In this document: positions 10,242 to 52,129 of the stretch, one piece after another | Layout of the letters: each line of letters starts with the position of its first letter | How positions within the stretch are numbered: the first letter of the stretch is position 1 | Assembly (NCBI GenBank): GCA_964544935.1 | Contig: CAZJDZ010000004.1 | Span: 15,802-79,801 of the forward strand | DNA: 64,000 nt | From: an uncultured Candidatus Saccharibacteria bacterium | GTDB lineage: Bacteria; Patescibacteriota; Minisyncoccia; Phycocordibacterales; UBA5272 | Direction of reading: 5' to 3' | Translations under genes and position numbers: made by a program | Notes under the pieces: model-generated | Told to the model about the DNA's origin: nothing | The model's input: the letters and a program-made list of their open reading frames with translations, nothing else | Databases searched by the model: none

Positions 10242-11210
10242 TTATAATGAGTCAAGGCAAGTAGTGAGCTCACAGGCATAATTTTTTACACTACACATAT
10301 TAAAAGTACCATCCCCTGGATTGATAGGACAAACCCATTTTGGAACAGCATTTTGAAATCCTGTCTGTGTGGTACAGTCTACACTTGGTGCGTTTGGAGG
10401 GGTTCCATTTCCACAACAGTTGTATGAAGCAAAAACAGAAGCTACTGCAGGGACACTTAAATATGTTTGAGAAGAGGCACTTATTTTTTGTTTCATACGT
10501 CGCACCCCTTCTGTAATATTATCTACTACAGAATATGAAGCATCTGTACAACTGCCATTTTGATTGATTTGCATTAAACCACAATCAAATGTTCCGTTAT
10601 CATTTTGGTGAGATCTGTTTGGAACTGCACCAGACTCTTTACACATCGTTACAATAGTCATTTTTTTAAGCATCGAGTCCCCTCCTGTTGCTTGATCAAT
10701 AATAGATTCATATTGTTTCCAGTTACAACCAGTGAGAGTTTTACATACTGTTCCTGCACAAACATTTCCGGACTGTAGTTTTTGTATAATACCAGCGGAG
10801 GATTCACATGCTTTTGAAGAGCCTCCACTCCCAACACTTGTTCCACTTGGAATAGCTGCAACCCCTCCCCCAAACCTTTTCGTCGCTAACGCCCCTAACC
10901 CTATCTCTCCATTCACTAACCCTTTGTTAACCGTAAACAAGATAAGAAACAAAGAAAACACACCAAGTAGTCCAAGAGTTACTTTCTTAATCTTCTCTTT
11001 ACTTTGTCTAATTGATGCTTCAGAAGCTTGCACCTGTAGCATTCCCGCTCCTACTAGTTGAAAAAAAGCAGCAATCACAATTGCTGTAAAGAAGAGTCCA
11101 TATATAAATGAAGATGTAGCAAAGAATGATATAGATTCCCCTGCTTTAAACGAAGGAGCAGTCATACCAAGAGCGGTGAGGTTGGAGGGTTCGAGAGAGG
11201 TATATTCCAT
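10242..11210 (-). CDS. membrane-anchored lytic transglycosylase (SLT domain), VirB1-like T4SS cell-wall hydrolase
   Basis: N-terminal two-TM hairpin, then Cys-rich domain with ES...GLMQIN (SLT catalytic Glu and GLMQ motif). Confidence 0.6.
   Translation of the reverse strand: MEYTSLEPSNLTALGMTAPSFKAGESISFFATSSFIYGLFFTAIVIAAFFQLVGAGMLQVQASEASIRQSKEKIKKVTLGLLGVFSLFLILFTVNKGLVNGEIGLGALATKRFGGGVAAIPSGTSVGSGGSSKACESSAGIIQKLQSGNVCAGTVCKTLTGCNWKQYESIIDQATGGDSMLKKMTIVTMCKESGAVPNRSHQNDNGTFDCGLMQINQNGSCTDASYSVVDNITEGVRRMKQKISASSQTYLSVPAVASVFASYNCCGNGTPPNAPSVDCTTQTGFQNAVPKWVCPINPGDGTFNMCSVKNYACELTTCLDSL
10878..11201 (-). repeat. 324-bp repeat copy A (5' module of SLT gene)
   Basis: nucleotide-identical to 13110-13433 as far as read; encodes identical 108-aa anchor YTSLEPSNLTALGMTAPSFKAGESISFFATSS...GLGALATK. 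Confidence 0.8.
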
Positions 11211-11215
11211 AACTA

Positions 11216-12511
11216 CTAATTTTCACCAAGAAGATTTGTGTTAAGAAGCCACAAAGAAGAATCTTGCTTCTTTGTAAAGCTTACAAAGAAATTATCTTCA
11301 GATGTAGTTAGTTTAATGATATCAAAAGCGCCCTCTTCCTCTTTAAAGGAATATAAAGAGTATTGTTCACCTGTTCGTACATCAATGGTAAAAAGATCAT
11401 CACTAAAAGAAATTCTTCCTTGGAGCCAGTCATCTGGTAACCCTTCCGTTACTCTGGGTATTGTTCTAGGGATAGCACATACAAAAAAGTCTTTAGTCTG
11501 TATAGCACACTTAGGTGCAAGTGTTGCAAAAGGAAGAACCCGAAGTGTTCCATTTTGAGAAAGAAATGTTGCAAGACCATTTTTCCCCCACATGCTATTT
11601 AACAGAGTTCCTTGGGATAAAGGGAGTGTCATAAGACCTGTTTTTTCAGCAACCTCTCCTTCAAATCGAGGTAAGCTAAGAGTCGCCCCTTCTATATATG
11701 CAGATGGTTTAGTTGTTACATACAGCGTATTCCCTCCGTATGAAATAGCCCATTCCCTAAATGGTGAAGAGGTTATGAATGTAGGATTTTTTGATGCAGT
11801 AACAGAATAGATAGCGCTTCCATTATCTGTCGCGACAACATATGAGCTTTCTGTTTTTGCTTGGTTAACAGCAACAGCAAGTACTTGAGAAGTTAAGTAT
11901 TCAATGTTCCCAAGAGGAGACGCTTCCGTTGATTGATTGATTGAGGGGACATTTGCGATTAGTCCAACAATTGTATTTTTTGTTTGATCTACATAACGCA
12001 TAATCACACGTCTCCCATTATCAAAAAAGTAAGCATCGTGCACCCCAGGGATTACAGAGTTACTTATTTGAAAAACCTGACCAGTCTCTAGTGGATAACC
12101 ATAAATATATCCAGTTGTTGCATCAACAAAGATAACCACAGTTGTTGTCGCACGAATAGTTTTCTTAACTTCAATTGTTGTTGTTCCTTGAGTGCTTGTT
12201 GCAGTAATTTCTTTGAGTACTTGAGTGGTGATAAATGTTTGACCTGTTGCTGGCTTTCCCCAGATTTTTACAAGAGGCATTGCAAGAGGGTTTGTTACTT
12301 CTGTTGTTGAAGAGTTAGTATCTTCACCATTAATCCAATCAGATATAAACTGAAATCGAGGAGGAAATGTTCTTGTCGGGATTGGATCATTTGTTGACTG
12401 TAATGAAGGAGCAATTACTGGTTTTGCATAGAAAAAATACCAAACAAGAACAATAACAACAAAAAATAGTACGAACCCAACAGCTATACGCAAACGACGG
12501 TTACTTTCCAT
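11216..12511 (-). CDS. hypothetical N-terminally anchored extracytoplasmic protein (beta-rich, Thr/Val-rich)
   Basis: single N-terminal TM (VGFVLFFVVIVLVWYFFYA); 431 aa; sits between the two hydrolase paralogs. Confidence 0.4.
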   Translation of the reverse strand: MESNRRLRIAVGFVLFFVVIVLVWYFFYAKPVIAPSLQSTNDPIPTRTFPPRFQFISDWINGEDTNSSTTEVTNPLAMPLVKIWGKPATGQTFITTQVLKEITATSTQGTTTIEVKKTIRATTTVVIFVDATTGYIYGYPLETGQVFQISNSVIPGVHDAYFFDNGRRVIMRYVDQTKNTIVGLIANVPSINQSTEASPLGNIEYLTSQVLAVAVNQAKTESSYVVATDNGSAIYSVTASKNPTFITSSPFREWAISYGGNTLYVTTKPSAYIEGATLSLPRFEGEVAEKTGLMTLPLSQGTLLNSMWGKNGLATFLSQNGTLRVLPFATLAPKCAIQTKDFFVCAIPRTIPRVTEGLPDDWLQGRISFSDDLFTIDVRTGEQYSLYSFKEEEGAFDIIKLTTSEDNFFVSFTKKQDSSLWLLNTNLLGEN

Positions 12512-12641
12512 ATAAAGAAGTATAGCAAGGATAGATAAGAGATTATAGAGTATAAAGTGCTAGAACTAATTACTTTGTATATAGTAAGTACAGTGAATCT
12601 ACTGTATTGTAGTACCTTACAAACCTTACAGCTAAGTTTTT

Positions 12642-13451
12642 TTATTTATATATGTGCCAATGTGCGGCTGTATTTTTTTCATCACAAAAAATATAACCAA
12701 AATTTTTATAGGTTGCTTTACAAAAACCAAGTGTTGGTCCTGGGGTGAAATTACGAACACAAGCATTAAGAGTCACATCATTAATTCCAAGGTCAACAGG
12801 AGTTCTTCCTGGACCATGACTGCTATGACCAGCTTCTGTTCCCCCTGTTACCTGTATAGAACCACCACAGGTACTTTTCAAGCTTTGAAGCATTATAAGT
12901 GTCTCTGGGTGCATTCCACCTACAGTTGTACATTCAGTAGCGGTAGGAGAAGAACATACTGATTTGTTTACAGTAATTCCTAGTTGTCTTAATTTTTCAC
13001 GAACAACAGGGTCTTCGTTAATAGCATTTTGCATACTATTGTTCCCAGATGGGGATCCGGCTCCTCCTGAAGGTGCTTGAGCGCCAATAGAGATACTTGT
13101 GCTAGTCCCTTTCGTCGCTAACGCCCCTAACCCTATCTCTCCATTCACTAACCCTTTGTTAACCGTAAACAAGATAAGAAACAAAGAAAACACACCAAGT
13201 AGTCCAAGAGTTACTTTCTTAATCTTCTCTTTACTTTGTCTAATTGATGCTTCAGAAGCTTGCACCTGTAGCATTCCCGCTCCTACTAGTTGAAAAAAAG
13301 CAGCAATCACAATTGCTGTAAAGAAGAGTCCATATATAAATGAAGATGTAGCAAAGAATGATATAGATTCCCCTGCTTTAAACGAAGGAGCAGTCATACC
13401 AAGAGCGGTGAGGTTGGAGGGTTCGAGAGAGGTGTAGGATACAGATTGCAT
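12642..13451 (-). CDS. membrane-anchored LAS-type (M15/VanY-like) zinc peptidase, putative peptidoglycan peptidase
   Basis: same 108-aa anchor as 10242-11210; C-terminal SSHGPGRTPVD (H-x7-D) and HWH (H-x-H) motifs characteristic of LAS metallopeptidases. Confidence 0.5.
   Translation of the reverse strand: MQSVSYTSLEPSNLTALGMTAPSFKAGESISFFATSSFIYGLFFTAIVIAAFFQLVGAGMLQVQASEASIRQSKEKIKKVTLGLLGVFSLFLILFTVNKGLVNGEIGLGALATKGTSTSISIGAQAPSGGAGSPSGNNSMQNAINEDPVVREKLRQLGITVNKSVCSSPTATECTTVGGMHPETLIMLQSLKSTCGGSIQVTGGTEAGHSSHGPGRTPVDLGINDVTLNACVRNFTPGPTLGFCKATYKNFGYIFCDEKNTAAHWHIYK
13110..13433 (-). repeat. 324-bp repeat copy B (5' module of LAS peptidase gene)
   Basis: identical to 10878-11201; offset 2232 bp, same strand. 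Confidence 0.8.
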
Positions 13452-13466
13452 GTACTCTAGTATAAA

Positions 13467-14438
13467 CTATTTTCTTGTATCAAAAATAAGTTCCGTTTCT
13501 AGTTCTGCATTTTGAAGAACCCTTGTTGGACCTGCTATTTTAATCGTAAGTAATTTTGAACCATAACTATTTTCTTTTGGATGAAGAGCAAGAAGTCTTC
13601 CTCCAAGTGGGGTCGATGGAAGGCCATCCAAAAACCATGTATATGTAGGACTCTTTGTCTCTTTGTCTGATACATAAAAAGGTTCAAGAGAAAGTGTAAA
13701 GTCCTTCACCACTTCAAATCTTCGTTCTATAAGATTCTTGAGTGTTGTACCGAATATCTGATCATATACATACAGAAGTGGCATAACAGGATGAGGAGTG
13801 ATAGTTATTGTTTTTGTTGCAGTAGTTCCATTCGGACTGTATACAACAACTCGGATATCATCACTATCCTGTAAGTAGTTGAGCTCTATGGTTGCTGACT
13901 GTTTACCATACCCAGAATAATTTTTAAGAAGCTGATCATCAATATACCAGCTATATGAAAGTGTTGCTGGGTCAAGCATGACACCTTTGTCACTCATCTG
14001 AGGTATCGCAGTAACTCTCACTGTTGCTCCGTCAGAAGGAAGAGATCTTCCTTCATAGAGTACAGGAACATAACTTTTAGGTGCTTCATAGATAAGTATT
14101 ACTGACGAAGGTGTGATTGAGAGTGTTTTGGTTACAAAGCTACCATCAGCAAGCTCAGCTTTTACAAAAATACGTGAAGTCACTCCAACATCAGCTGTTT
14201 GAAGTGTAAGAGTATCAGCACCTCTACCTTGAAGAATGGTATTTCCATCCATTTGCCATGTAATAAATGCGATCCCAGTATTAAAAGAATAACTCGAAAG
14301 AGTTATACGAACCGTGCTTTTTGGCGATGGGTTCGGTGGATCAAGTGTTATAAACGCATCTGTTTGTTGTGCATATGCGTGTGTACAGAAGAAAAAGAGA
14401 TAGATGCAAGAAGAAAGAATTGTAATTATTTTTTTCAT
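13467..14438 (-). CDS. hypothetical secreted protein (signal peptide), T4SS-associated
   Basis: MKKIITILSSCIYLFFFCTHAYA signal peptide; 4-nt overlap with the VirB4 stop suggests translational coupling. Confidence 0.45.
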   Translation of the reverse strand: MKKIITILSSCIYLFFFCTHAYAQQTDAFITLDPPNPSPKSTVRITLSSYSFNTGIAFITWQMDGNTILQGRGADTLTLQTADVGVTSRIFVKAELADGSFVTKTLSITPSSVILIYEAPKSYVPVLYEGRSLPSDGATVRVTAIPQMSDKGVMLDPATLSYSWYIDDQLLKNYSGYGKQSATIELNYLQDSDDIRVVVYSPNGTTATKTITITPHPVMPLLYVYDQIFGTTLKNLIERRFEVVKDFTLSLEPFYVSDKETKSPTYTWFLDGLPSTPLGGRLLALHPKENSYGSKLLTIKIAGPTRVLQNAELETELIFDTRK

Positions 14439-16264
14439 ACACCTTTTGATTGTTCAACCTCCTCCTTCATTTCTTGAATTTTAAGAAGTTGAGAAGGGTC
14501 ACTTGTGATAATCTGATCCTCTGTATATGAAGCAACAACTTTAAGTGCCACATGTTTAAGACCTGCAAAAAAGATCCCTTCCCCCACACCGGACTCTAGA
14601 AGTAAGAACTTTTCTTCATTAGTAAGATTAAAAGTTTTTTGAACAATATCAATTGAAGACGGGGATTGTTTGAGAAGAATTTGAATTGAAGAGTTGGTAA
14701 TAATTGGAAGACCATATGGAGATTTAAGAAAATCCCCTACGTCTTGTGTAATTGTTGCAAGTCCTAAATAATATTTTCTTCCACGTTTTGCAAGACCAAA
14801 AAGGAAAGATGCTGTATCATCGTTTTTCATCATGATCCACGCTTCATCTACCACAAGGAGTCGCTTACGAAGATTTTTACGAACAGCGTTCCAGATGAAA
14901 TGTGTGATGAGATACATAGCAACTGGCTTGAGGTCATCTTCCATGTCTCGAATAGAAAAACAAACAAGCTTCTTGTTGATGTCCACATTTGAAGGCTGGT
15001 TGATGAACCCTGACCATGTCCCTTTTGTATATTTTGAGATTCTTTGAACAAGACTTTCAGACCCCTCTATTCCTGAGAGTACAGTTTCAAAATCAGAAAG
15101 AAGTGGTGGTTCTAGTTTTGTAAAATCAGTATCACCATTAATATCTTTAAGTGCATACGTTTCGGTAATTGCCTGATCGATAATAGCGTCTTCCTCAGGA
15201 GTAAGACCTCCAAGCATCACACGAAAAAGTCCAACCAAGTTCACAATGTTTGATCTAAGCACCTCTGAAGGAGATTCATCTTGTGTTGGATGTGGCAAGT
15301 CAAATGGGTTGATATGGTGTTCCCCAACAAGTGAAATATCAAAGTAACGGCCACCAACAGATTCTGCAAGAAATTCATATTCGCGTTCTGGGTCAATGAT
15401 AATTACTTCAGTATCAAACATAAGAGTTCGCAGAATTTCAAGTTTTGTAAAATAACTTTTTCCAGAACCAGATTTTGCAAACACAATTGAATTGTAGTTC
15501 TCCATTGAGAAGCGATCAAAGAGAATGAGACTACCATTGTGACGATTAAGTCCATACAAGATCCCTCTATCAGAAGAAAGATCAAAAGAAACAAATGGGA
15601 AAAACGAAGACAAAGGAGATGTGTTAAGCTTGTTTTTTATCTGTAACAAATCTTGTCCAACTGGAAGTGTTGAAATAAAACCTGCATCTTGCTGGAAAAG
15701 TGCCGGCTTAACGTACACAAGTTTACTTTCAAGAATATTTTTAATTTCATTTTCTGCCTTATCTATTTCTTCATTTGTTTTACCATAAAGAGTAATATAC
15801 AAAGATACTTCAAACATCTTCTCTTGAGCTTGTGTAAGGCCGTCACGAAGATCTTCAAGATCTTGGTAAGCAACATCAAGTGTCGGGTCTCTTACCATCC
15901 CCTTTTCATCACGAGTCATGATTTGACTCTGTACCTCTGCCACCTTTCTTTGAAATGTCTTCATGACTTCACTCGTATTAAGTGGAACAATATGAATTGA
16001 AATATCAAAAACCTTATCAAGGTTAATAACTGGACTTAGCCAGTTATCAGTAAGGTATCTAGGGTATGAAATAACAAAAAAAGAACGCGTAATTGACGTG
16101 CCTAAGTTAAGCGCTTTTGATTGCACTTCAAGTGCACTCGGTGCAATAATATCTTTTAATTGCATCTCAGCAATCTTATACACCTGCTCTGGTAATACCG
16201 GAGTGATGAGCGATTTATGTTCAGGCTCTGCCTTTTTTTTGTTTAAAAAATCAAAAAGTCCCAT
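14435..16264 (-). CDS. virB4: VirB4/TrbE-family conjugal-transfer ATPase (Gram-positive PrgJ/TcpF type)
   Basis: Walker A FAKSGSGKSYFTK, Walker B LLVVDEAW; N-terminal DIIAPSALEV...YPRYLTDNWLSPVI region typical of monoderm VirB4. Confidence 0.8.
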   Translation of the reverse strand: MGLFDFLNKKKAEPEHKSLITPVLPEQVYKIAEMQLKDIIAPSALEVQSKALNLGTSITRSFFVISYPRYLTDNWLSPVINLDKVFDISIHIVPLNTSEVMKTFQRKVAEVQSQIMTRDEKGMVRDPTLDVAYQDLEDLRDGLTQAQEKMFEVSLYITLYGKTNEEIDKAENEIKNILESKLVYVKPALFQQDAGFISTLPVGQDLLQIKNKLNTSPLSSFFPFVSFDLSSDRGILYGLNRHNGSLILFDRFSMENYNSIVFAKSGSGKSYFTKLEILRTLMFDTEVIIIDPEREYEFLAESVGGRYFDISLVGEHHINPFDLPHPTQDESPSEVLRSNIVNLVGLFRVMLGGLTPEEDAIIDQAITETYALKDINGDTDFTKLEPPLLSDFETVLSGIEGSESLVQRISKYTKGTWSGFINQPSNVDINKKLVCFSIRDMEDDLKPVAMYLITHFIWNAVRKNLRKRLLVVDEAWIMMKNDDTASFLFGLAKRGRKYYLGLATITQDVGDFLKSPYGLPIITNSSIQILLKQSPSSIDIVQKTFNLTNEEKFLLLESGVGEGIFFAGLKHVALKVVASYTEDQIITSDPSQLLKIQEMKEEVEQSKGV

Positions 16265-16269
16265 ATAAT

Positions 16270-16902
16270 TTATTGTGTAACTTTAGGAGCCGCTCTGTCT
16301 CCTTCACTTGGATTAAAGAGTTTATAGAAGAGCTCAACCACCTCCTCTGTTCCAAGTCTTTGAGCACGAAGCCCAAAACGAGAAAGTCCTTGTAGTACAG
16401 TTGCTGTACGTTGTTCAAGTTGAATACGTGCAGCTTCAAACCCTGTCTCAATATTTTTTGATGAACTGTTGCCCCCTAAAGAAAGAAGAGAAGAAGGGCT
16501 TGTTCCTTGAGCGCTTTGATTGAAGTATGGAACAGTAACAAAAAAGTGTTTGGTCATGATGTTACTTTCTTCGGTGAACTTAGCTATGAATCCCATATAT
16601 TCATGGATCTGGATCTTGAGCAAATCTTCTTTTACCTCCCCACTTCGTTCTTTAAGGAGGTCCATATATGGTTTGATATTAAGTTTTCTTGATTGCACAA
16701 AAATCTCTACAGGAAAATCAAGTGAATTAAGAAAATTTTGAAACTGGGACAGTACTGCTTGCTGCTCATCTTCACTTTTGAGTCCAAGGTTAAGTGAGTT
16801 GGTGAGCAAGATAGCACGAAGTTCCCCTGTCTTTAAAATAACAATACCATCGCGTACACGCTCAATTGGAACAAACTCTTGTGTTGATAGTCCTTTAGCC
16901 AT
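16270..16902 (-). CDS. T4SS-associated protein resembling the extra N-terminal domain of long (Tn916 Orf16-type) VirB4 proteins
   Basis: FVPIERVRDGIVILKTGELRAILLTNSLNLGLKSEDEQQAVLSQF pattern; stop TAA lies 5 nt upstream of the VirB4 ATG in a different frame. Confidence 0.45.
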   Translation of the reverse strand: MAKGLSTQEFVPIERVRDGIVILKTGELRAILLTNSLNLGLKSEDEQQAVLSQFQNFLNSLDFPVEIFVQSRKLNIKPYMDLLKERSGEVKEDLLKIQIHEYMGFIAKFTEESNIMTKHFFVTVPYFNQSAQGTSPSSLLSLGGNSSSKNIETGFEAARIQLEQRTATVLQGLSRFGLRAQRLGTEEVVELFYKLFNPSEGDRAAPKVTQ

Positions 16903-16932: not shown

Positions 16933-17364
16933 TTACTCCCTATCCTCTTTCTGTGAGTTGTGTTCAAAAACATCAAGTCCAAGTGCAAGATCATGAATTT
17001 TATCTCGATTTGTTTTTTGAATAATAATTTCTTTTTGAGTGTTTGCAACAACTTGATCAACTGAAGTTTCATTCTTTTTCATTTCTGGTTGTCTCCATGT
17101 GTAGACTTTTGCACCAGTGTAATAATTAAAAGCACTTTCTAATATTTCACCAAAAGATCTGTTGTTGTATTTTACAAAAGCAAGTGAAAGAAATAGTCCT
17201 GCAACAGGAATAATCAAAAGTATTGCAAGAAATTTAATTGGCATAAATGTCCAAATAAGAAACGAGGTTCCTCCAGCGCCAACTAAGTAGCCAAACTGTT
17301 TTAAGGTAAAAGGGCCGAAGACTTTATCTTCCATATCGATGAATTGTGGTACTCGAAATTGCAT
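16933..17364 (-). CDS. PrgI/VirB3-like small membrane protein
   Basis: VPQFIDMEDKVFGPFTLKQFGYLVGAGG followed by two TM helices; positioned upstream of virB4 as PrgI is to PrgJ. Confidence 0.5.
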   Translation of the reverse strand: MQFRVPQFIDMEDKVFGPFTLKQFGYLVGAGGTSFLIWTFMPIKFLAILLIIPVAGLFLSLAFVKYNNRSFGEILESAFNYYTGAKVYTWRQPEMKKNETSVDQVVANTQKEIIIQKTNRDKIHDLALGLDVFEHNSQKEDRE

Positions 17365-18252: not shown

Positions 18253-21105
18253 TTAAGCTTGTGCAGTAGCGGTGGATTCTGGTTGGATAGATGTCTCTGT
18301 TTGAGAGGAGTTAGCAGCTGGAGGAACTGGAGGAGTAACAACTTTGGAAGAAGATTGTACTGGGATAGATGAAGGACGCACTTCTGGTGGATGAGGTTGA
18401 CTGATAGAAGCATTCGCTGCCCCTCCGGCATCAGCACGTTGTTGTACAAGTTTTTGTTGCATTTGACGCTTTTGTGCTACGCGTTGTGCAAAGCTACTTG
18501 TGTTGATAGAAAATTCAGCAGCATTTTCTATTGATCGATTTTGTTTATCTTTTGCCTCTGCAAGAATTTTGGTATCAGAATCTACCAAAGTAGAATCTTT
18601 TTGATCGACCACTTTTTGAGCTCTATCAACCTCAGCAGCTCTACCCTCTTCAACTTTCCTTATACGTTCCTCACGAAGTGCTGCACCAGCAAGAGGTCCG
18701 CCTAAGGTTTTGGTTGCTTCTTGGGAAGAAGCTGAGGCAGACCCCCCAGATCTTTTTGCAATAATTGCCTCTTTAACATCTGCACTCTGTCGAGCGAAAT
18801 AGTCTTTCTTTTTTTCTTCACTCATATCCTTGAGTTCATTTTCAACACGAAGAACCTCTTTGTTTAGATTCTCCTGAATTCCTTTCTCCTCTTTTTCTAT
18901 ATCATGCATCACTCGAGAAAGTGCCATACCTCTGTTACTTTCAAGTTTTGGATCGCTCCTCTTAAGCTCATCCATCTCTTTTTTGACTTGTTCAGTGAAC
19001 ATTTTTTTACCATCCTTACCCTCTTTTTTATAGTTGGCAAGTAATTGACCTCCAGTCTCGTCAACATAAGTATCGCCTAGTTTGTTTCTTTGGTCTTTTG
19101 TTAAGAAAAGAGCACCCCCGTTGTTTGAAAGATATTCTTCTCGTCTCTTTACAGCTTCTTCGTCCTCTTCTCCTTTTCTATGCCACTTACCGTCTGAGCC
19201 TATTCCATCTCGTTCGTACTTTGTTTTTATTCTGTCGGCACGAGCCATAACACTTTTAACACGCTTCTCATCTCGAGCATTTTTAATTTCTTCATGACCG
19301 AGTTTTGAACCCATCCCCATCCCCATCCCAAGTTTCTTTGCGGCTCCTGCAACATACGTGCTGTTACGTAGATCAAAGGTACTATTAGCAACAGAGTTAG
19401 AAAGGTCATACGCACGACGTCCAAGGAATGAGTTTTCGTTCTTTTTTACCCACTCACTCTCTCTTGCTTTAAGAGCAAGTCCACCTAAACCTTTTCGCGC
19501 AAGAAGACCTGCTCCACCCGCAGCAACTCCAAGTCCAAATCCTCCAACCTTACCTATTCCTTCAGTTGCCCAAGTTCCTACTGTTCCCGAGACACTAACG
19601 GTTACCTTGATCATGATATGCAGCATGATGAGCATCATGATGATGTTGAAGAATACAGGGATAGTTGTAGAAACAGGACCAGAAAGACTTCCTAAACCAG
19701 AAGAAGTAAGTGCTCCTGTTGTATGGAATACTTCCAAAAATTTAAGCGTAAGAGCAAGCATAATCATAAACACAGGACCAACCGCAAGTTGTTCAAAAAG
19801 AATCTTTCGAAGAAACTTTGCTCTCTCTCCAAGTACTGGAATAACCGCATCAACAAGTAAAAGTGGGGATGCAATAGTAAGAAACACAAGCGATACTGTG
19901 CGCCCTATCATGATAATGGTAACTCGTATAAAAATAAACGCAGCATATGCAACAAAAGCAACTGCTGCAAGAGCTGCAGGGACGCTGCTAAGCTCACCAA
20001 GCATGTTGCCAGTAGTGTTCGTAGTTGCACTAAACACTAAACCACTTAACCCAAGTGCACTCACAATAAGTGCCCCTGCTGTGTTCTCTGATGTTCCAGA
20101 AAGTGCACTACTTCCTACTGCTGAAGCATAAATATTAAGTGAAATAATATTTGAAATATCAATCGCTGTACGGATAAGTGGATATGAAAAGTTAACAAAA
20201 AGTCCAAACATAACCACCCACGGGATATATCGTTCAAATGTCTCCTCCTTTCCTAAGATATACATGAATCCTAAGTAGAGTCCTATGAAGACAATAGCAA
20301 GTGAGATGATTTGTCGAATAATAATCCAAATAGGATAGAGTGTGTCCGGTGCCCAATCGGAGAAATGAAGAATCCCTACTTGAATTGAAGTGTTAAAAAT
20401 ATTTGCAGAAGCCCAGAGTAAGAAACCAGCAAACTCAAGAAGTGTATTCTTAATAATCCAAGTTATTCCTTCATTGATACAGGCCACAAGACTCCATCTC
20501 CAAAGAGTACAAGTTCCTGTATCTTGTGCGCTAACAATTTTATCAGTTTGTGTCTGTGCGTTAGCTATCGCATCAGGATTTGAGTTAAGGTTTCCAGAAG
20601 AACCGCCGCTATTAATTGTTTTTGCTATTTCTAATTCTGTTCGTAACTGAGCTTGAAAAGCATTGTAGATGGACATTGCTTGAATTTTATTCATGTCACC
20701 ACTTAACGGCGGAATACTGCTTCCTAAGCTTTTTTGTGTTTCTGTAAGAGCTTTTATCTGTGCTTCAGGCGGGGAGAGTTTTGTATCATAAGAATTAAGG
20801 TATACGGTTTTAGCGGTACTTACTGCTGTTAGTAATTTAGGTGCTAATGTTTTATATATTTCATATCGAGCTTTACCCTCATCTGTTTGAAGTTTAGAAG
20901 CAGCATCTAAGCCTTGGTTTATTGCTACGGTATAGTTATCAAAAATTTTTGCGACATTACCTTTTGCAGTGTCATGAGTGTAGTTAGTCGAGTTGTAAGA
21001 AATTATGTTTGCTGATTGAGCATGAGTTTTTTGAGGCGTTGAAAAACCACCAAAAAGGCTTACAGAAAGGAGAATAAGAGAGATGACTACACCAAGTCTT
21101 TTCAT
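18253..21105 (-). CDS. VirB6/TrbL-like polytopic membrane protein with long charged coiled-coil C-terminal extension
   Basis: signal peptide, at least 6 central TM helices, K/E/R-rich tail with GMGMGMG and Pro-rich end; 950 aa. Confidence 0.5.
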   Translation of the reverse strand: MKRLGVVISLILLSVSLFGGFSTPQKTHAQSANIISYNSTNYTHDTAKGNVAKIFDNYTVAINQGLDAASKLQTDEGKARYEIYKTLAPKLLTAVSTAKTVYLNSYDTKLSPPEAQIKALTETQKSLGSSIPPLSGDMNKIQAMSIYNAFQAQLRTELEIAKTINSGGSSGNLNSNPDAIANAQTQTDKIVSAQDTGTCTLWRWSLVACINEGITWIIKNTLLEFAGFLLWASANIFNTSIQVGILHFSDWAPDTLYPIWIIIRQIISLAIVFIGLYLGFMYILGKEETFERYIPWVVMFGLFVNFSYPLIRTAIDISNIISLNIYASAVGSSALSGTSENTAGALIVSALGLSGLVFSATTNTTGNMLGELSSVPAALAAVAFVAYAAFIFIRVTIIMIGRTVSLVFLTIASPLLLVDAVIPVLGERAKFLRKILFEQLAVGPVFMIMLALTLKFLEVFHTTGALTSSGLGSLSGPVSTTIPVFFNIIMMLIMLHIMIKVTVSVSGTVGTWATEGIGKVGGFGLGVAAGGAGLLARKGLGGLALKARESEWVKKNENSFLGRRAYDLSNSVANSTFDLRNSTYVAGAAKKLGMGMGMGSKLGHEEIKNARDEKRVKSVMARADRIKTKYERDGIGSDGKWHRKGEEDEEAVKRREEYLSNNGGALFLTKDQRNKLGDTYVDETGGQLLANYKKEGKDGKKMFTEQVKKEMDELKRSDPKLESNRGMALSRVMHDIEKEEKGIQENLNKEVLRVENELKDMSEEKKKDYFARQSADVKEAIIAKRSGGSASASSQEATKTLGGPLAGAALREERIRKVEEGRAAEVDRAQKVVDQKDSTLVDSDTKILAEAKDKQNRSIENAAEFSINTSSFAQRVAQKRQMQQKLVQQRADAGGAANASISQPHPPEVRPSSIPVQSSSKVVTPPVPPAANSSQTETSIQPESTATAQA

Positions 21106-47860: not shown

Positions 47861-47882
47861 TGTGCCCATCACATGCTCAAAT

Positions 47883-47954
47883 TTCCTCCAATCAAACGTT
47901 CTGAATCTGTGTACCATTTGGAGAACTTGACAAATTATAACAATATGATATACT
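47883..47954 (+). promoter_or_regulatory. promoter module R2: TTCCTCCAATCAAACGTTCTGAATCTGTGTAC, then TTGACA-16-TATACT
   Basis: near-consensus sigma70 promoter preceded by a motif conserved with R1 and R3. Confidence 0.5.
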
Positions 47955-48185: not shown

Positions 48186-48210
48186 ATTTTGGCTACCATA
48201 TTCTCATACT

Positions 48211-48293
48211 TCCTCCAATCAAATGTTCTGAATTTGTTTACAGTTTTGAGCTCTAAGCCTACATCTTGCGCTTTTTTGCACGTATGGTATACT
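48211..48293 (+). promoter_or_regulatory. promoter module R3: TTCCTCCAATCAAATGTTCTGAATTTGTTTAC, then TTGCGC-16-TATACT, heading a roughly 300-nt leader before nusA
   Basis: shares a 32-nt motif with R2 (4 mismatches). Confidence 0.45.
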
Positions 48294-50521: not shown

Positions 50522-51643
50522 ATGAAAATTGAAAAGAAAGACTTACCAAAAGGATTGGTAGAATTAAAAATCGTTGTTGATGAAAAAGAACTTGAAGCTT
50601 ATCACGATAAAGCCCTTACTGCTGTACAACAAGCGGTAGAAGTTGATGGTTTCCGTAAAGGAAATGCGCCAGAAGATCTTATCATCAAGAAGTACGGTGA
50701 TATGGTTATCCTAGAAGAGATGGCTAATTTTGCACTTCGTGCAGCATATGTGAAAGCTGTTGAAGATCATAAGCTTAATCCAATCTCAGATCCACAAGTA
50801 ACAATCACAAAGATTGCTAAGAACAATCCCCTTGAACTCACTATCACCGTTCCTGTGATGCCAGACATTACACTTCCTTCATACAAGAAGATTGCAAAAG
50901 AAGCTGTAACAGATGGAGAAAAAATCGAAGTTACTGACAAGGATATCGAAGTTGTTCTTGAAGAACTTCGTAAGGGTCGCGCTACACAGCACGCTCATGA
51001 CCATGAAGGACATGATCATGCTCACGATCATCATGATCACGAAGGTCATGACCACCATGACCATGACCACACTCACGTCGAGGAAGCGAAGGAAGGTGAT
51101 GTGAAAAAAGAAGTTGTCCTCCCTGAGCTTAACGATGAGTTTGCGCAGAGTTTTGGTCCAGAGTTCAAGACACTTGCTGAACTTAAGAGTAAGGTAGGTG
51201 AAAACTTAAAGCTTGAAAAAGAGCAGAAGCTTCGTGAGAAGCGCCGTACTGCAATCATGGAGAAGCTTGTTGCAGAAACAAAGACAGAACTCCCGGATGT
51301 TATCATCGAAGGAGAGCTCAACAACATGCTTGCACAGATGCGTGCAGATATTACTCGTTTCGGTGGAACATGGGAAGAATACCTTGCTCACTCTAAGAAG
51401 ACAGAAGAAGAGATTAAGAAAGACTGGATCTCAGACGCGCATAAGCGTGCTATGAGTCAGCTTCTTCTTCATAAGATCGGACAAGCAGAAAAACTAACTG
51501 CAACAGAAGAAGAAGTAGAAGTAGAACTTGTTCGCCTTCTTGCGACAGTTCAGGATGCTGATGAGGAACGTGCAAAGGCGTATCTTTATCAGGCGCTTAC
51601 CAACGACAAAGTTCTCGCCTTTTTGGAAAAGGTCGCAGACTAA
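50522..51643 (+). CDS. tig: trigger factor-like chaperone lacking PPIase domain, with His/Asp-rich insertion
   Basis: N-terminal ribosome-binding domain VDGFRKGNAPEDLI (GFRxGxxP motif); C-terminal arm domain; HAHDHEGHDHAHDHHDHEGHDHHDHDHTH insert; 373 aa. Confidence 0.7.
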   Translation: MKIEKKDLPKGLVELKIVVDEKELEAYHDKALTAVQQAVEVDGFRKGNAPEDLIIKKYGDMVILEEMANFALRAAYVKAVEDHKLNPISDPQVTITKIAKNNPLELTITVPVMPDITLPSYKKIAKEAVTDGEKIEVTDKDIEVVLEELRKGRATQHAHDHEGHDHAHDHHDHEGHDHHDHDHTHVEEAKEGDVKKEVVLPELNDEFAQSFGPEFKTLAELKSKVGENLKLEKEQKLREKRRTAIMEKLVAETKTELPDVIIEGELNNMLAQMRADITRFGGTWEEYLAHSKKTEEEIKKDWISDAHKRAMSQLLLHKIGQAEKLTATEEEVEVELVRLLATVQDADEERAKAYLYQALTNDKVLAFLEKVAD

Positions 51644-51666
51644 CGCGGACCTCGCAGAAAGATACG

Positions 51667-51704
51667 AATACAAAAGCAGTGCCGTAAGGCACTGCTTTTG
51701 TATT
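51667..51704. terminator. bidirectional intrinsic terminator (AATACAAAAGCAGTGCC-GTAA-GGCACTGCTTTTGTATT)
   Basis: between convergent tig and the DoxX gene; outer stem identical to the 2202 hairpin. Confidence 0.6.
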
Positions 51705-51727
51705 GTATTTAATCTGCTAAGTCCGTT

Positions 51728-52129
51728 CTAGTTCGCGTGTTCTGCAGAAACTCTCTTCTTTGGGTGAACAGCACAATCTTCACAAGCACAACCAATAGCA
51801 GCCATGATACCTCCAATGATTGCAATGTTTTTAAGTGCCATAATTACATTGAGTGCGTTACCAAGATCTCGATGTACAACAACCGTTACAAGTGCGGTGA
51901 ATCCGATAAGAATGTATCCAGAGAGTCTTGTTTTATATCCCCAAGCAAATGCACCTGCAACACCTATTTCAATTGCAATTACAATAAGGGTGGCAAGAGG
52001 CGCAAGTGGTACACCCATACTAGCAATAGAGCCTGAGGTGTCTGTGAAATGCATTAATTTTTGAACACCAGCAACAATAAATAAAAGTGCGATTAAAATA
52101 CGTGAGGTTTGAGCGTAATCAAGTTTCAT
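51728..52129 (-). CDS. DoxX-family membrane protein
   Basis: 4-TM, 133 aa, LFIVAGVQKL... Confidence 0.65.
   Translation of the reverse strand: MKLDYAQTSRILIALLFIVAGVQKLMHFTDTSGSIASMGVPLAPLATLIVIAIEIGVAGAFAWGYKTRLSGYILIGFTALVTVVVHRDLGNALNVIMALKNIAIIGGIMAAIGCACEDCAVHPKKRVSAEHAN

Follow-up and report, generated by a model that had tools for sequence, protein, structure and literature searches.

The subject of this analysis is a pair of genes, here called A and B, in the operon of a type IV secretion system (T4SS) carried by a 64-kb stretch of DNA (64,000 nucleotides, positions 15,802 to 79,801 of contig CAZJDZ010000004.1), the whole of which is referred to as the window. The T4SS is chromosomal, of monoderm type (MPF-FATA-like), and belongs to an ultrasmall, probably Paceibacteria-like bacterium of the Patescibacteria, or candidate phyla radiation (CPR); a monoderm-type T4SS beside dnaA is a described feature of this group (PMC12102498). 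The operon is read from the minus strand in the order PrgI-TrsD-VirB4-U323-B-M431-A, after which come yidC, rnpA and dnaA. Genes A and B open with one and the same two-helix, pilin-like module, end in unrelated domains that resemble peptidoglycan-cutting enzymes, and have had their modules repeatedly homogenised by gene conversion. The two genes and their parts, with lengths in amino acids (aa), are disposed as follows:

10242..11210, minus strand: gene A, 322 aa, with an N-terminal pilin-like hairpin, a Gly/Ser linker and a C-terminal lysozyme-like/SLT domain (open reading frame, ORF; orthologue family of about 130 proteins)
10245..10814, minus strand: lysozyme-like/SLT catalytic domain of A, residues ~133-322, Cys-rich (invariant motifs, PDB profile matches)
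10878..11201, minus strand: repeat copy 1, the pilin-like two-helix module, codons 4-111 of gene A (exact identity with 13110-13433)
12642..13451, minus strand: gene B, 269 aa, with the same pilin-like hairpin, a disordered linker and a C-terminal LAS-fold zinc-peptidase-like domain (ORF; family of about 110 proteins)
12645..13046, minus strand: LAS-like (Hedgehog/DD-peptidase fold) domain of B, residues 136-269
13110..13433, minus strand: repeat copy 2, codons 7-114 of gene B (exact identity with 10878-11201)

A first-pass annotation of this DNA had called the two 324-bp stretches identical, and an in-register comparison bears this out: positions 10878-11201 and 13110-13433 form an uninterrupted exact match. 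They make up a direct repeat whose copies are offset by 2232 bp, and on either flank identity sinks to background. The match amounts to exactly 108 codons, from T4 to K111 in gene A and from T7 to K114 in gene B, and outside it the genes are unlike in their start codons, in their first residues (MEY... in A, MQSVSY... in B) and in everything beyond K111/K114. BLASTP of A against B accordingly gives 115/131 identities at the N-terminus only, the C-terminal domains being unrelated. Because this pair is the sole long repeat of the 64-kb window, chance is excluded as the source of its identity. The plus-strand antisense ORFs at 10732-11061 and 13099-13293 have their last ~60 aa in common simply because the DNA beneath them is repeated, and both are spurious, as had already been supposed. 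A Logan short-read assembly, SRR13208904, also holds the repeat sequence with 0 mismatches, from a run that may share the window's sample.

The significance of the repeat emerges from comparison with its relatives. When one genome per species was scanned with the alignment of the A family, 39 loci with a relative of A were recovered, and both gene families co-occur on the same contigs. Self-BLAST of these loci finds a direct repeat about 2.2 kb apart in every locus with both genes on the contig except L038, the most divergent one, in which the modules are unrelated and both genes persist. Of 21 genomes in which both genes occur, 20 have N-terminal modules in A and B that agree at 82-100% of their nucleotides (81.6-100% before rounding). 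Identity within a genome is complete in four loci (over 230-383 bp), 99.3-99.7% in five and 97-98.5% in four, the remaining loci standing at 94.3, 92.5, 86.0, 83.4 and 81.6%. A codon alignment of 20 genomes places the median identity of A and B at 0.93 within a genome, as against a median of 0.55 and a maximum of 0.70 between genomes, and 38 of the 40 modules are closest to their paralogue from the same genome. Given that modules cluster by genome over gene, that they do so with synonymous sites included, and that their flanks are orthologous, the hairpin modules have been repeatedly homogenised by intrachromosomal gene conversion, that is, by concerted evolution.

The closest relative, L041 (a 147-kb contig from the European Nucleotide Archive), illustrates the process most sharply. 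It has a pair of its own, 100% identical over 365 bp, and its module differs from that of the window in 62 of 108 codons (35 synonymous and 27 non-synonymous changes, 72.8% nucleotide identity); since each pair is internally identical, every substitution that separates the two genomes sits in both copies of its genome. Between genomes the median aa identity is 0.47 for the module, 0.49 for the SLT domain and 0.34 for the LAS domain. The module is thus no better conserved than the catalytic domains, and purifying selection cannot explain the identity. Rather, gene conversion lets the module evolve in concert within each genome and diverge between genomes as fast as the catalytic domains. The converted tracts measure approximately 230-400 bp; their starting points range from codon 3 to codon 35, and they stop within the linker. 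With regard to GC-biased conversion, the GC content at third codon positions does not differ between the module and the C-terminal domains in the 20 genomes. For the identity in the window the first-pass annotation had offered gene conversion, concerted evolution or assembly collapse; the comparative data select the first two and argue strongly against the third.

A second case comes from a distant lineage, in a record labelled Bdellovibrionales. At L039:6311-9206 a gene for a T4SS_pilin+SLT protein (518 aa) adjoins one for a T4SS_pilin domain followed by another C-terminal domain (427 aa, of which the C-terminal domain takes up ~190 aa). The pilin module is common to both genes, with 374 bp at 99.2% identity, and homogenisation restricted to the module thus recurs in another gene arrangement.

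What, then, is the module? AlphaFold2 predicts a helical hairpin, with helices at 32-63 and 67-97, followed by a disordered linker, and hydropathy gives two transmembrane-like segments on either side of a Lys-rich loop, QSKEKIKK. In the predicted topology the short N-terminal tail lies outside, the Lys/Arg-rich loop in the cytoplasm and the C-terminus again outside. Two hydrophobic helices and a basic loop, encoded in a T4SS locus, are the marks of a T4SS_pilin or VirB2-like domain, and profile comparison points the same way. The Pfam model PF18895 is matched directly by three distant members of the B family and by most of the longer relatives; hhalign of the module alignment against these PF18895-positive segments returns a probability of 97.5% (E 5e-12), and a hidden Markov model (HMM) built solely from the positive segments matches A and B at E 2-4e-9. 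The same HMM matches nothing else in the window, nor anything else within 7 kb of 18 related loci. By homology between profiles, then, the shared module is best taken as a remote VirB2-like T4SS_pilin (PF18895) domain, and A and B provide the only ones recognised in the locus. The earlier description of one two-helix membrane hairpin on both genes stands, with the refinement that this anchor is no generic hairpin, given the remote relationship to T4SS_pilin that hhalign and the HMM reveal. Neither A nor B has a leader peptide, and each bears bulky C-terminal cargo in the form of an enzyme of 15-20 kDa. It should be kept in mind that the assignments of A and B, here and below, rest on family profiles and predicted structure.

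The catalytic domain of A had been taken for an SLT glycosidase, a reading that its family sustains. Pfam SLT (PF01464, GH23-type) is matched by 32 of 34 A orthologues, at best with 3.9e-11, and SLT_3 by 19 of the 34; E192-S193, D209-C-G-L-M-Q-I-N and S262-Y-N-C-C (S/A at 262) are invariant or nearly so in the 34 sequences, so that profile matches and catalytic motifs agree in placing the domain among the SLT or lysozyme-like enzymes. Searched against the PDB, the A-family profile finds g-type and c-type lysozymes and the type III secretion system transglycosylase EtgA at E 4e-4 to 6e-3. The invariant D209 (codon 10584-10586) aligns with the second catalytic Asp of c-type lysozyme (1gd6, 'KDYGLFQIN'), and for this reason the 'SLT' domain of A may be a hydrolytic muramidase instead of a lytic transglycosylase.

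The catalytic domain of B is less readily placed by sequence. It has no Pfam or NCBIfam match (threshold E<=1 for the protein of the window, E<=0.01 for 39 members of the family) and no sequence match in the PDB, where a search with the B-family profile gave only spurious matches to G protein-coupled receptors and other transmembrane proteins, and it belongs to none of the existing sequence families (Pfam Peptidase_M15, the VanY families, NCBIfam). In the full-length AlphaFold2 model of B the linker at 112-132 has a predicted local distance difference test score (pLDDT) below 50 and the C-terminal domain one above 90, and the domain conforms to the LAS fold, in keeping with the LAS-type peptidase first proposed for the end of gene B. 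Throughout the B family H212 and D220 are invariant and H264-W-H266 nearly so; these residues are candidate Zn ligands, with an H-x7-D spacing that becomes x6 in the distant member P0112, where LAS zinc peptidases (MEROPS M15/M74-like) show H-x3-6-D together with a His of an H-x-H motif. The domain family also has three conserved cysteines and an FCDE motif. A phmmer search (E<=1e-3) of 1.84 billion cluster representatives yielded at least 572 clusters at 50% identity, and by this measure the LAS-like family is large and lacks an existing profile model. Presumably the LAS-fold zinc-peptidase-like domain of B cuts peptide stems or cross-links.

Within the LAS-like family two subtypes can be told apart, one with '...NKxVC...HWH' and the other with an insertion and 'HFHV' (e.g., P0061-P0072 versus the rest), at ~30% identity between them. 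Both follow the same kind of pilin module.

The remaining genes of the T4SS operon, and one gene upstream of it, are all on the minus strand:

11216..12511, minus strand: M431, 431 aa, one N-terminal transmembrane helix and a large extracytoplasmic domain (hydropathy; position kept in ~20 loci)
13467..14438, minus strand: U323, 323 aa, secreted or membrane-anchored, between VirB4 and B (weak BiPBP_C match; conserved position)
14435..16264, minus strand: VirB4-like ATPase of CD1110 / MPF-FATA type (NCBIfam conju_CD1110 6.5e-113, Pfam P-loop_TraG 2e-24)
16270..16902, minus strand: TrsD-like protein, the N-terminal part of VirB4 as a separate ORF (NCBIfam VirB4 N-terminal and TrsD matches, far below the curated cut-offs)
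16933..17364, minus strand: PrgI, VirB3-like (Pfam PrgI 1.6e-11)
18253..21105, minus strand: 950-aa polytopic membrane protein, candidate VirB6/PrgH analogue (signal-like N-terminus and ~6 transmembrane-like segments by hydropathy)

M431 has no Pfam or NCBIfam match, and a Pfam search with the 950-aa protein at 18253-21105 was likewise without a match. The order PrgI-TrsD-VirB4-U323-B-M431-A, or whatever part of it a given contig holds, is syntenic in about 20 metagenome-assembled genomes (MAGs) of Patescibacteria, and the homologue records bear the names Paceibacterota, Parcubacteria and Nomurabacteria in addition to MAGs auto-labelled 'Saccharibacteria'. A and B sit 2-4 genes downstream of VirB4, A is the last gene of the operon in about 20 genomes, M431 invariably separates the two copies of the repeat, and U323 and M431 are always interleaved with both hydrolases. 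The locus thus encodes predicted wall-degrading domains inside a T4SS operon, the mark of VirB1-type enzymes. VirB4 itself is apparently split, a 210-aa ORF lying directly ahead of the 609-aa ATPase in all related loci. Its aa identity is 84-93% in most of these loci and 79-80% in the two most distant. Rates are uneven along the operon, VirB4 being 84-93% identical in genomes whose adjoining U323, B, M431 and A reach no more than 23-67% (L003-L032). Elsewhere in the window there is a 61-nt direct repeat at 47863-47923 and 48190-48250 (79% identity, 327-bp spacing) and, at 51634-51737, a 50-nt imperfect inverted repeat with 72% complementarity and a loop of 4 nt.

In light of these assignments, A and B are probably the two peptidoglycan-cutting accessory enzymes of this T4SS, with modules homogenised by recurrent conversion. 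A split VirB1 had been suggested from the outset, and it gains backing from the operon position directly downstream of VirB4 and from proteins of the Rosetta-stone kind: P0221, P0241 and P0305 (773-801 aa) carry pilin, LAS and SLT domains in a single chain, and such fusions support joint action of A and B, like that of PrgK and TraG. Among the cluster representatives that best match the LAS domain, 123 of the top 150 have a pilin module upstream. The pilin+LAS combination is widespread in CPR, and pilin+LAS+SLT in one chain occurs in a few proteins.

In the mechanism that we propose, each protein consists of three parts, namely a VirB2-like hairpin, a flexible Gly/Ser/Thr/Pro linker and an extracytoplasmic catalytic domain. 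The lysozyme-like/SLT domain of A would cleave the glycan, and the LAS-fold domain of B would cleave peptide stems or cross-links. The shared module could bring both enzymes to one site, either the membrane platform of VirB3, VirB4 and VirB6 or the site of pilin assembly, where glycan and peptide bonds, of the cell's own wall or of the host's, might be cut together as they are by single-chain VirB1 analogues; identical modules would preserve one partner interface on both enzymes. Co-targeting of A and B by the shared module is what we infer from these features of the sequences.

Several observations weigh against the overall interpretation. In a direct hmmscan the A and B proteins of the window do not match PF18895 at E<=1, and searches of Pfam, NCBIfam and PDB sequences with these two proteins themselves stayed below threshold. 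The A protein of the window reaches 15.2 bits with the SLT model, below the Pfam cut-off of 21.3 bits. The assembler could have erased a few single-nucleotide differences between the copies in this particular genome, and the proximity of two homologous segments, 2.2 kb from each other, could by itself have homogenised them neutrally.

The last of these points is the core of the alternative that survives best, one that we consider unlikely and yet worth serious thought: conversion is real, the hairpin is a mere membrane anchor, and homogenisation is a by-product of proximity, without selection for identical modules and with no link to a pilus or to a common docking site. Short-range conversion between nearby homologous tracts is to be expected wherever RecA-type recombination exists. 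In addition, the range of 82-100% identity among genomes means that perfection is not required, the fully diverged modules of L038 have not cost that genome either gene, and no GC bias or other signature was detected. However, homogenisation has been maintained over a deep clade whose orthologues are only 35-60% identical, it recurs in the different arrangement of L039, and the module is homologous to T4SS pilins, unlike a generic signal anchor. Moreover, the stand-alone array pilins of other Patescibacteria reportedly vary widely, with a mean identity of 25% and a maximum of 54% (PMC12102498), and proximity alone therefore does not homogenise pilin genes.

A bolder possibility takes the homology of the module at face value: A and B, as the only VirB2-like proteins of the locus, would be bona fide pilin subunits located in the T4SS filament or at its tip. 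We regard this as doubtful, more so than neutrality of the conversion. If true, the filament would display a glycosidase/peptidase pair on flexible linkers, capable of breaching the wall of the host bacterium during epibiotic attachment, and conversion would keep the polymerisation modules interchangeable amid rapid diversification, for example under host or phage pressure.

It is very unlikely that the direct repeats serve as a substrate for programmed or frequent rearrangement, in which excision or tandem amplification of 2.2 kb would generate chimeric genes or alter enzyme dosage. The suggestion arises from one contig of the Logan assembly SRR13208904, L001 (1509 bp), which joins window positions 11262->10878 to 13109->11986 at 100% identity and so presents the end of M431, the start of A and the repeat, followed by the C-terminal domain of B and the start of M431. 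This junction is the one expected of an excised circle or of a tandem duplication of the 2232-bp unit, but a low-coverage de Bruijn walk (repeat -> B C-terminal domain -> M431 -> repeat) trivially gives the same junction, and the contig is only 1.5 kb long. All long contigs have the canonical order, and the ORFs annotated from ~7.3 to 31.3 kb include none noted as a recombinase gene.

Still less credible is an assembly artefact, in which diverged or single copies were collapsed or duplicated by the assembler and the perfect identity is not biological. The window does come from a metagenome-assembled contig, the Logan contig does thread the repeat in the alternative way (A-upstream -> repeat -> B C-terminal domain), a sign that assemblers struggle at this locus, and in 15 of the 39 related loci the contig stops inside or at the module; contigs end there, however, because real repeats break short-read assemblies. 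The same repeat is found in the same place in about 20 MAGs of different studies at 81.6-100% identity, several pairs, differing at 1-8 positions, stand as distinct copies on assembled contigs of 50-775 kb, each copy has flanks of its own and an intact reading frame, and L041 has an identical pair of its own with a different sequence.

The repeat nevertheless leaves its trace on assemblies. The two ends of CAZNZQ010000005.1 (53,032 bp), L025 and L026, repeat each other in inverted orientation, without a mismatch, for 7654 bp or more, and both begin in the tail of A's pilin module; the probable cause is a palindromic assembly artefact that arose at the repeat. In practice, many CPR assemblies break off at just this locus because of the repeat.

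The weakest alternative dispenses with conversion and ascribes the identity to extreme purifying selection or to one very recent duplication confined to this genome. A working hairpin is presumably needed by both proteins, and some positions of the module are conserved. But the identity covers all synonymous sites, the divergence of the module keeps pace with that of the catalytic domains (including the synonymous codon changes relative to L041) and both genes carry the module in every genome with conserved synteny, a combination that requires repeated copying between the loci, i.e., gene conversion, and leaves this alternative next to no credence. On the comparative data, three possible causes of the identity were rejected: purifying selection, one recent duplication and the collapse of copies in assembly.

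The T4SSs of Patescibacteria, which reportedly cannot be dispensed with in epibiotic life, are without relaxases and coupling proteins, and they have VirB2-like pilins, which is unusual in monoderms. The locus has implications beyond the repeat. It represents a conserved solution in one large clade, in which what appear to be the sole pilin-like modules are fused to putative glycan- and peptide-cleaving enzymes and kept alike by gene conversion, and it suggests the hypothesis that the pilin module serves to target or assemble wall-degrading cargo. A further product of the analysis is an LAS-like peptidase family that had no profile model and is nearly always found behind a pilin module. More broadly, the locus provides an unusually clean natural case of domain-restricted concerted evolution in streamlined genomes. 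The literature searched, including that on PF18895, yielded no account of pilins fused to hydrolases, nor of T4SS loci undergoing gene conversion.

The closest functional parallels are PrgK of pCF10 and TraG of pIP501, which likewise belong to MPF-FATA-type operons with PrgI and a VirB4-like ATPase (PMC12102498 in part), and which likewise combine an N-terminal membrane anchor with SLT/lysozyme-like glycan-cleaving and peptidase domains. They differ in being one polypeptide, with a single ordinary transmembrane anchor and a CHAP/NlpC-P60 or LytM peptidase, whereas here there are two polypeptides, a LAS-fold peptidase and a VirB2-like pilin hairpin present twice, in copies that evolve in concert. 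Another parallel is the chromosomal Patescibacterial T4SS of the saccharibacterium Southlakia epibionticum (SEML1_0006-0019), which also has PrgI, VirB4 and a VirB6-like protein (Wang et al. 2023, PMC10633639). There the lysozyme-like SEML1_0006 and SEML1_0007, a structural match to Peptidase M15B, adjoin virB4 (PMC10633639), and the lysozyme and peptidase homologues beside virB4 have been reported to be essential for epibiotic growth (PMC12102498). Southlakia differs in possessing a separate array of six stand-alone PF18895 pilins (PMC10633639), whereas in the clade of the window no stand-alone pilin was found in the locus and the pilin-like modules occur only fused to the two hydrolases.

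As for the domains themselves, the module shares with VirB2/TrbC pilins and with the PF18895 arrays a two-helix hydrophobic hairpin, a basic loop, a place in a T4SS locus and homology between profiles, and relatives of the A/B module have in addition the N-P-x-L-like motif after helix 2 that recalls VirB2/TrbC. Canonical pilins are unlike it in being stand-alone proteins of ~70-130 aa with a cleaved leader, whereas A and B are without a leader and have an enzyme at the C-terminus; and whereas array pilins are reported to be at most 54% identical to one another, the A and B modules are 82-100% identical. From the LAS metallopeptidases (MepA, VanX/VanY, the Zn DD-peptidase of Streptomyces albus and phage L-Ala-D-Glu endolysins) and the Hedgehog N-domain, the domain of B differs in matching no Pfam M15 family and no PDB chain at the level of sequence, in its H-x7-D spacing, in its conserved cysteines and FCDE motif, and in forming a family of its own.

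Segmental concerted evolution of bacterial paralogues has precedents in tufA/tufB and in the 5'/3' conversion of babA/babB in Helicobacter pylori. There as here, RecA-type conversion keeps part of the paralogues identical within a genome as the orthologues diverge. In contrast to those pairs, conversion in the present case is limited to one domain of otherwise non-homologous enzymes, and it has been kept up over a deep clade, inside the operon of a secretion system.

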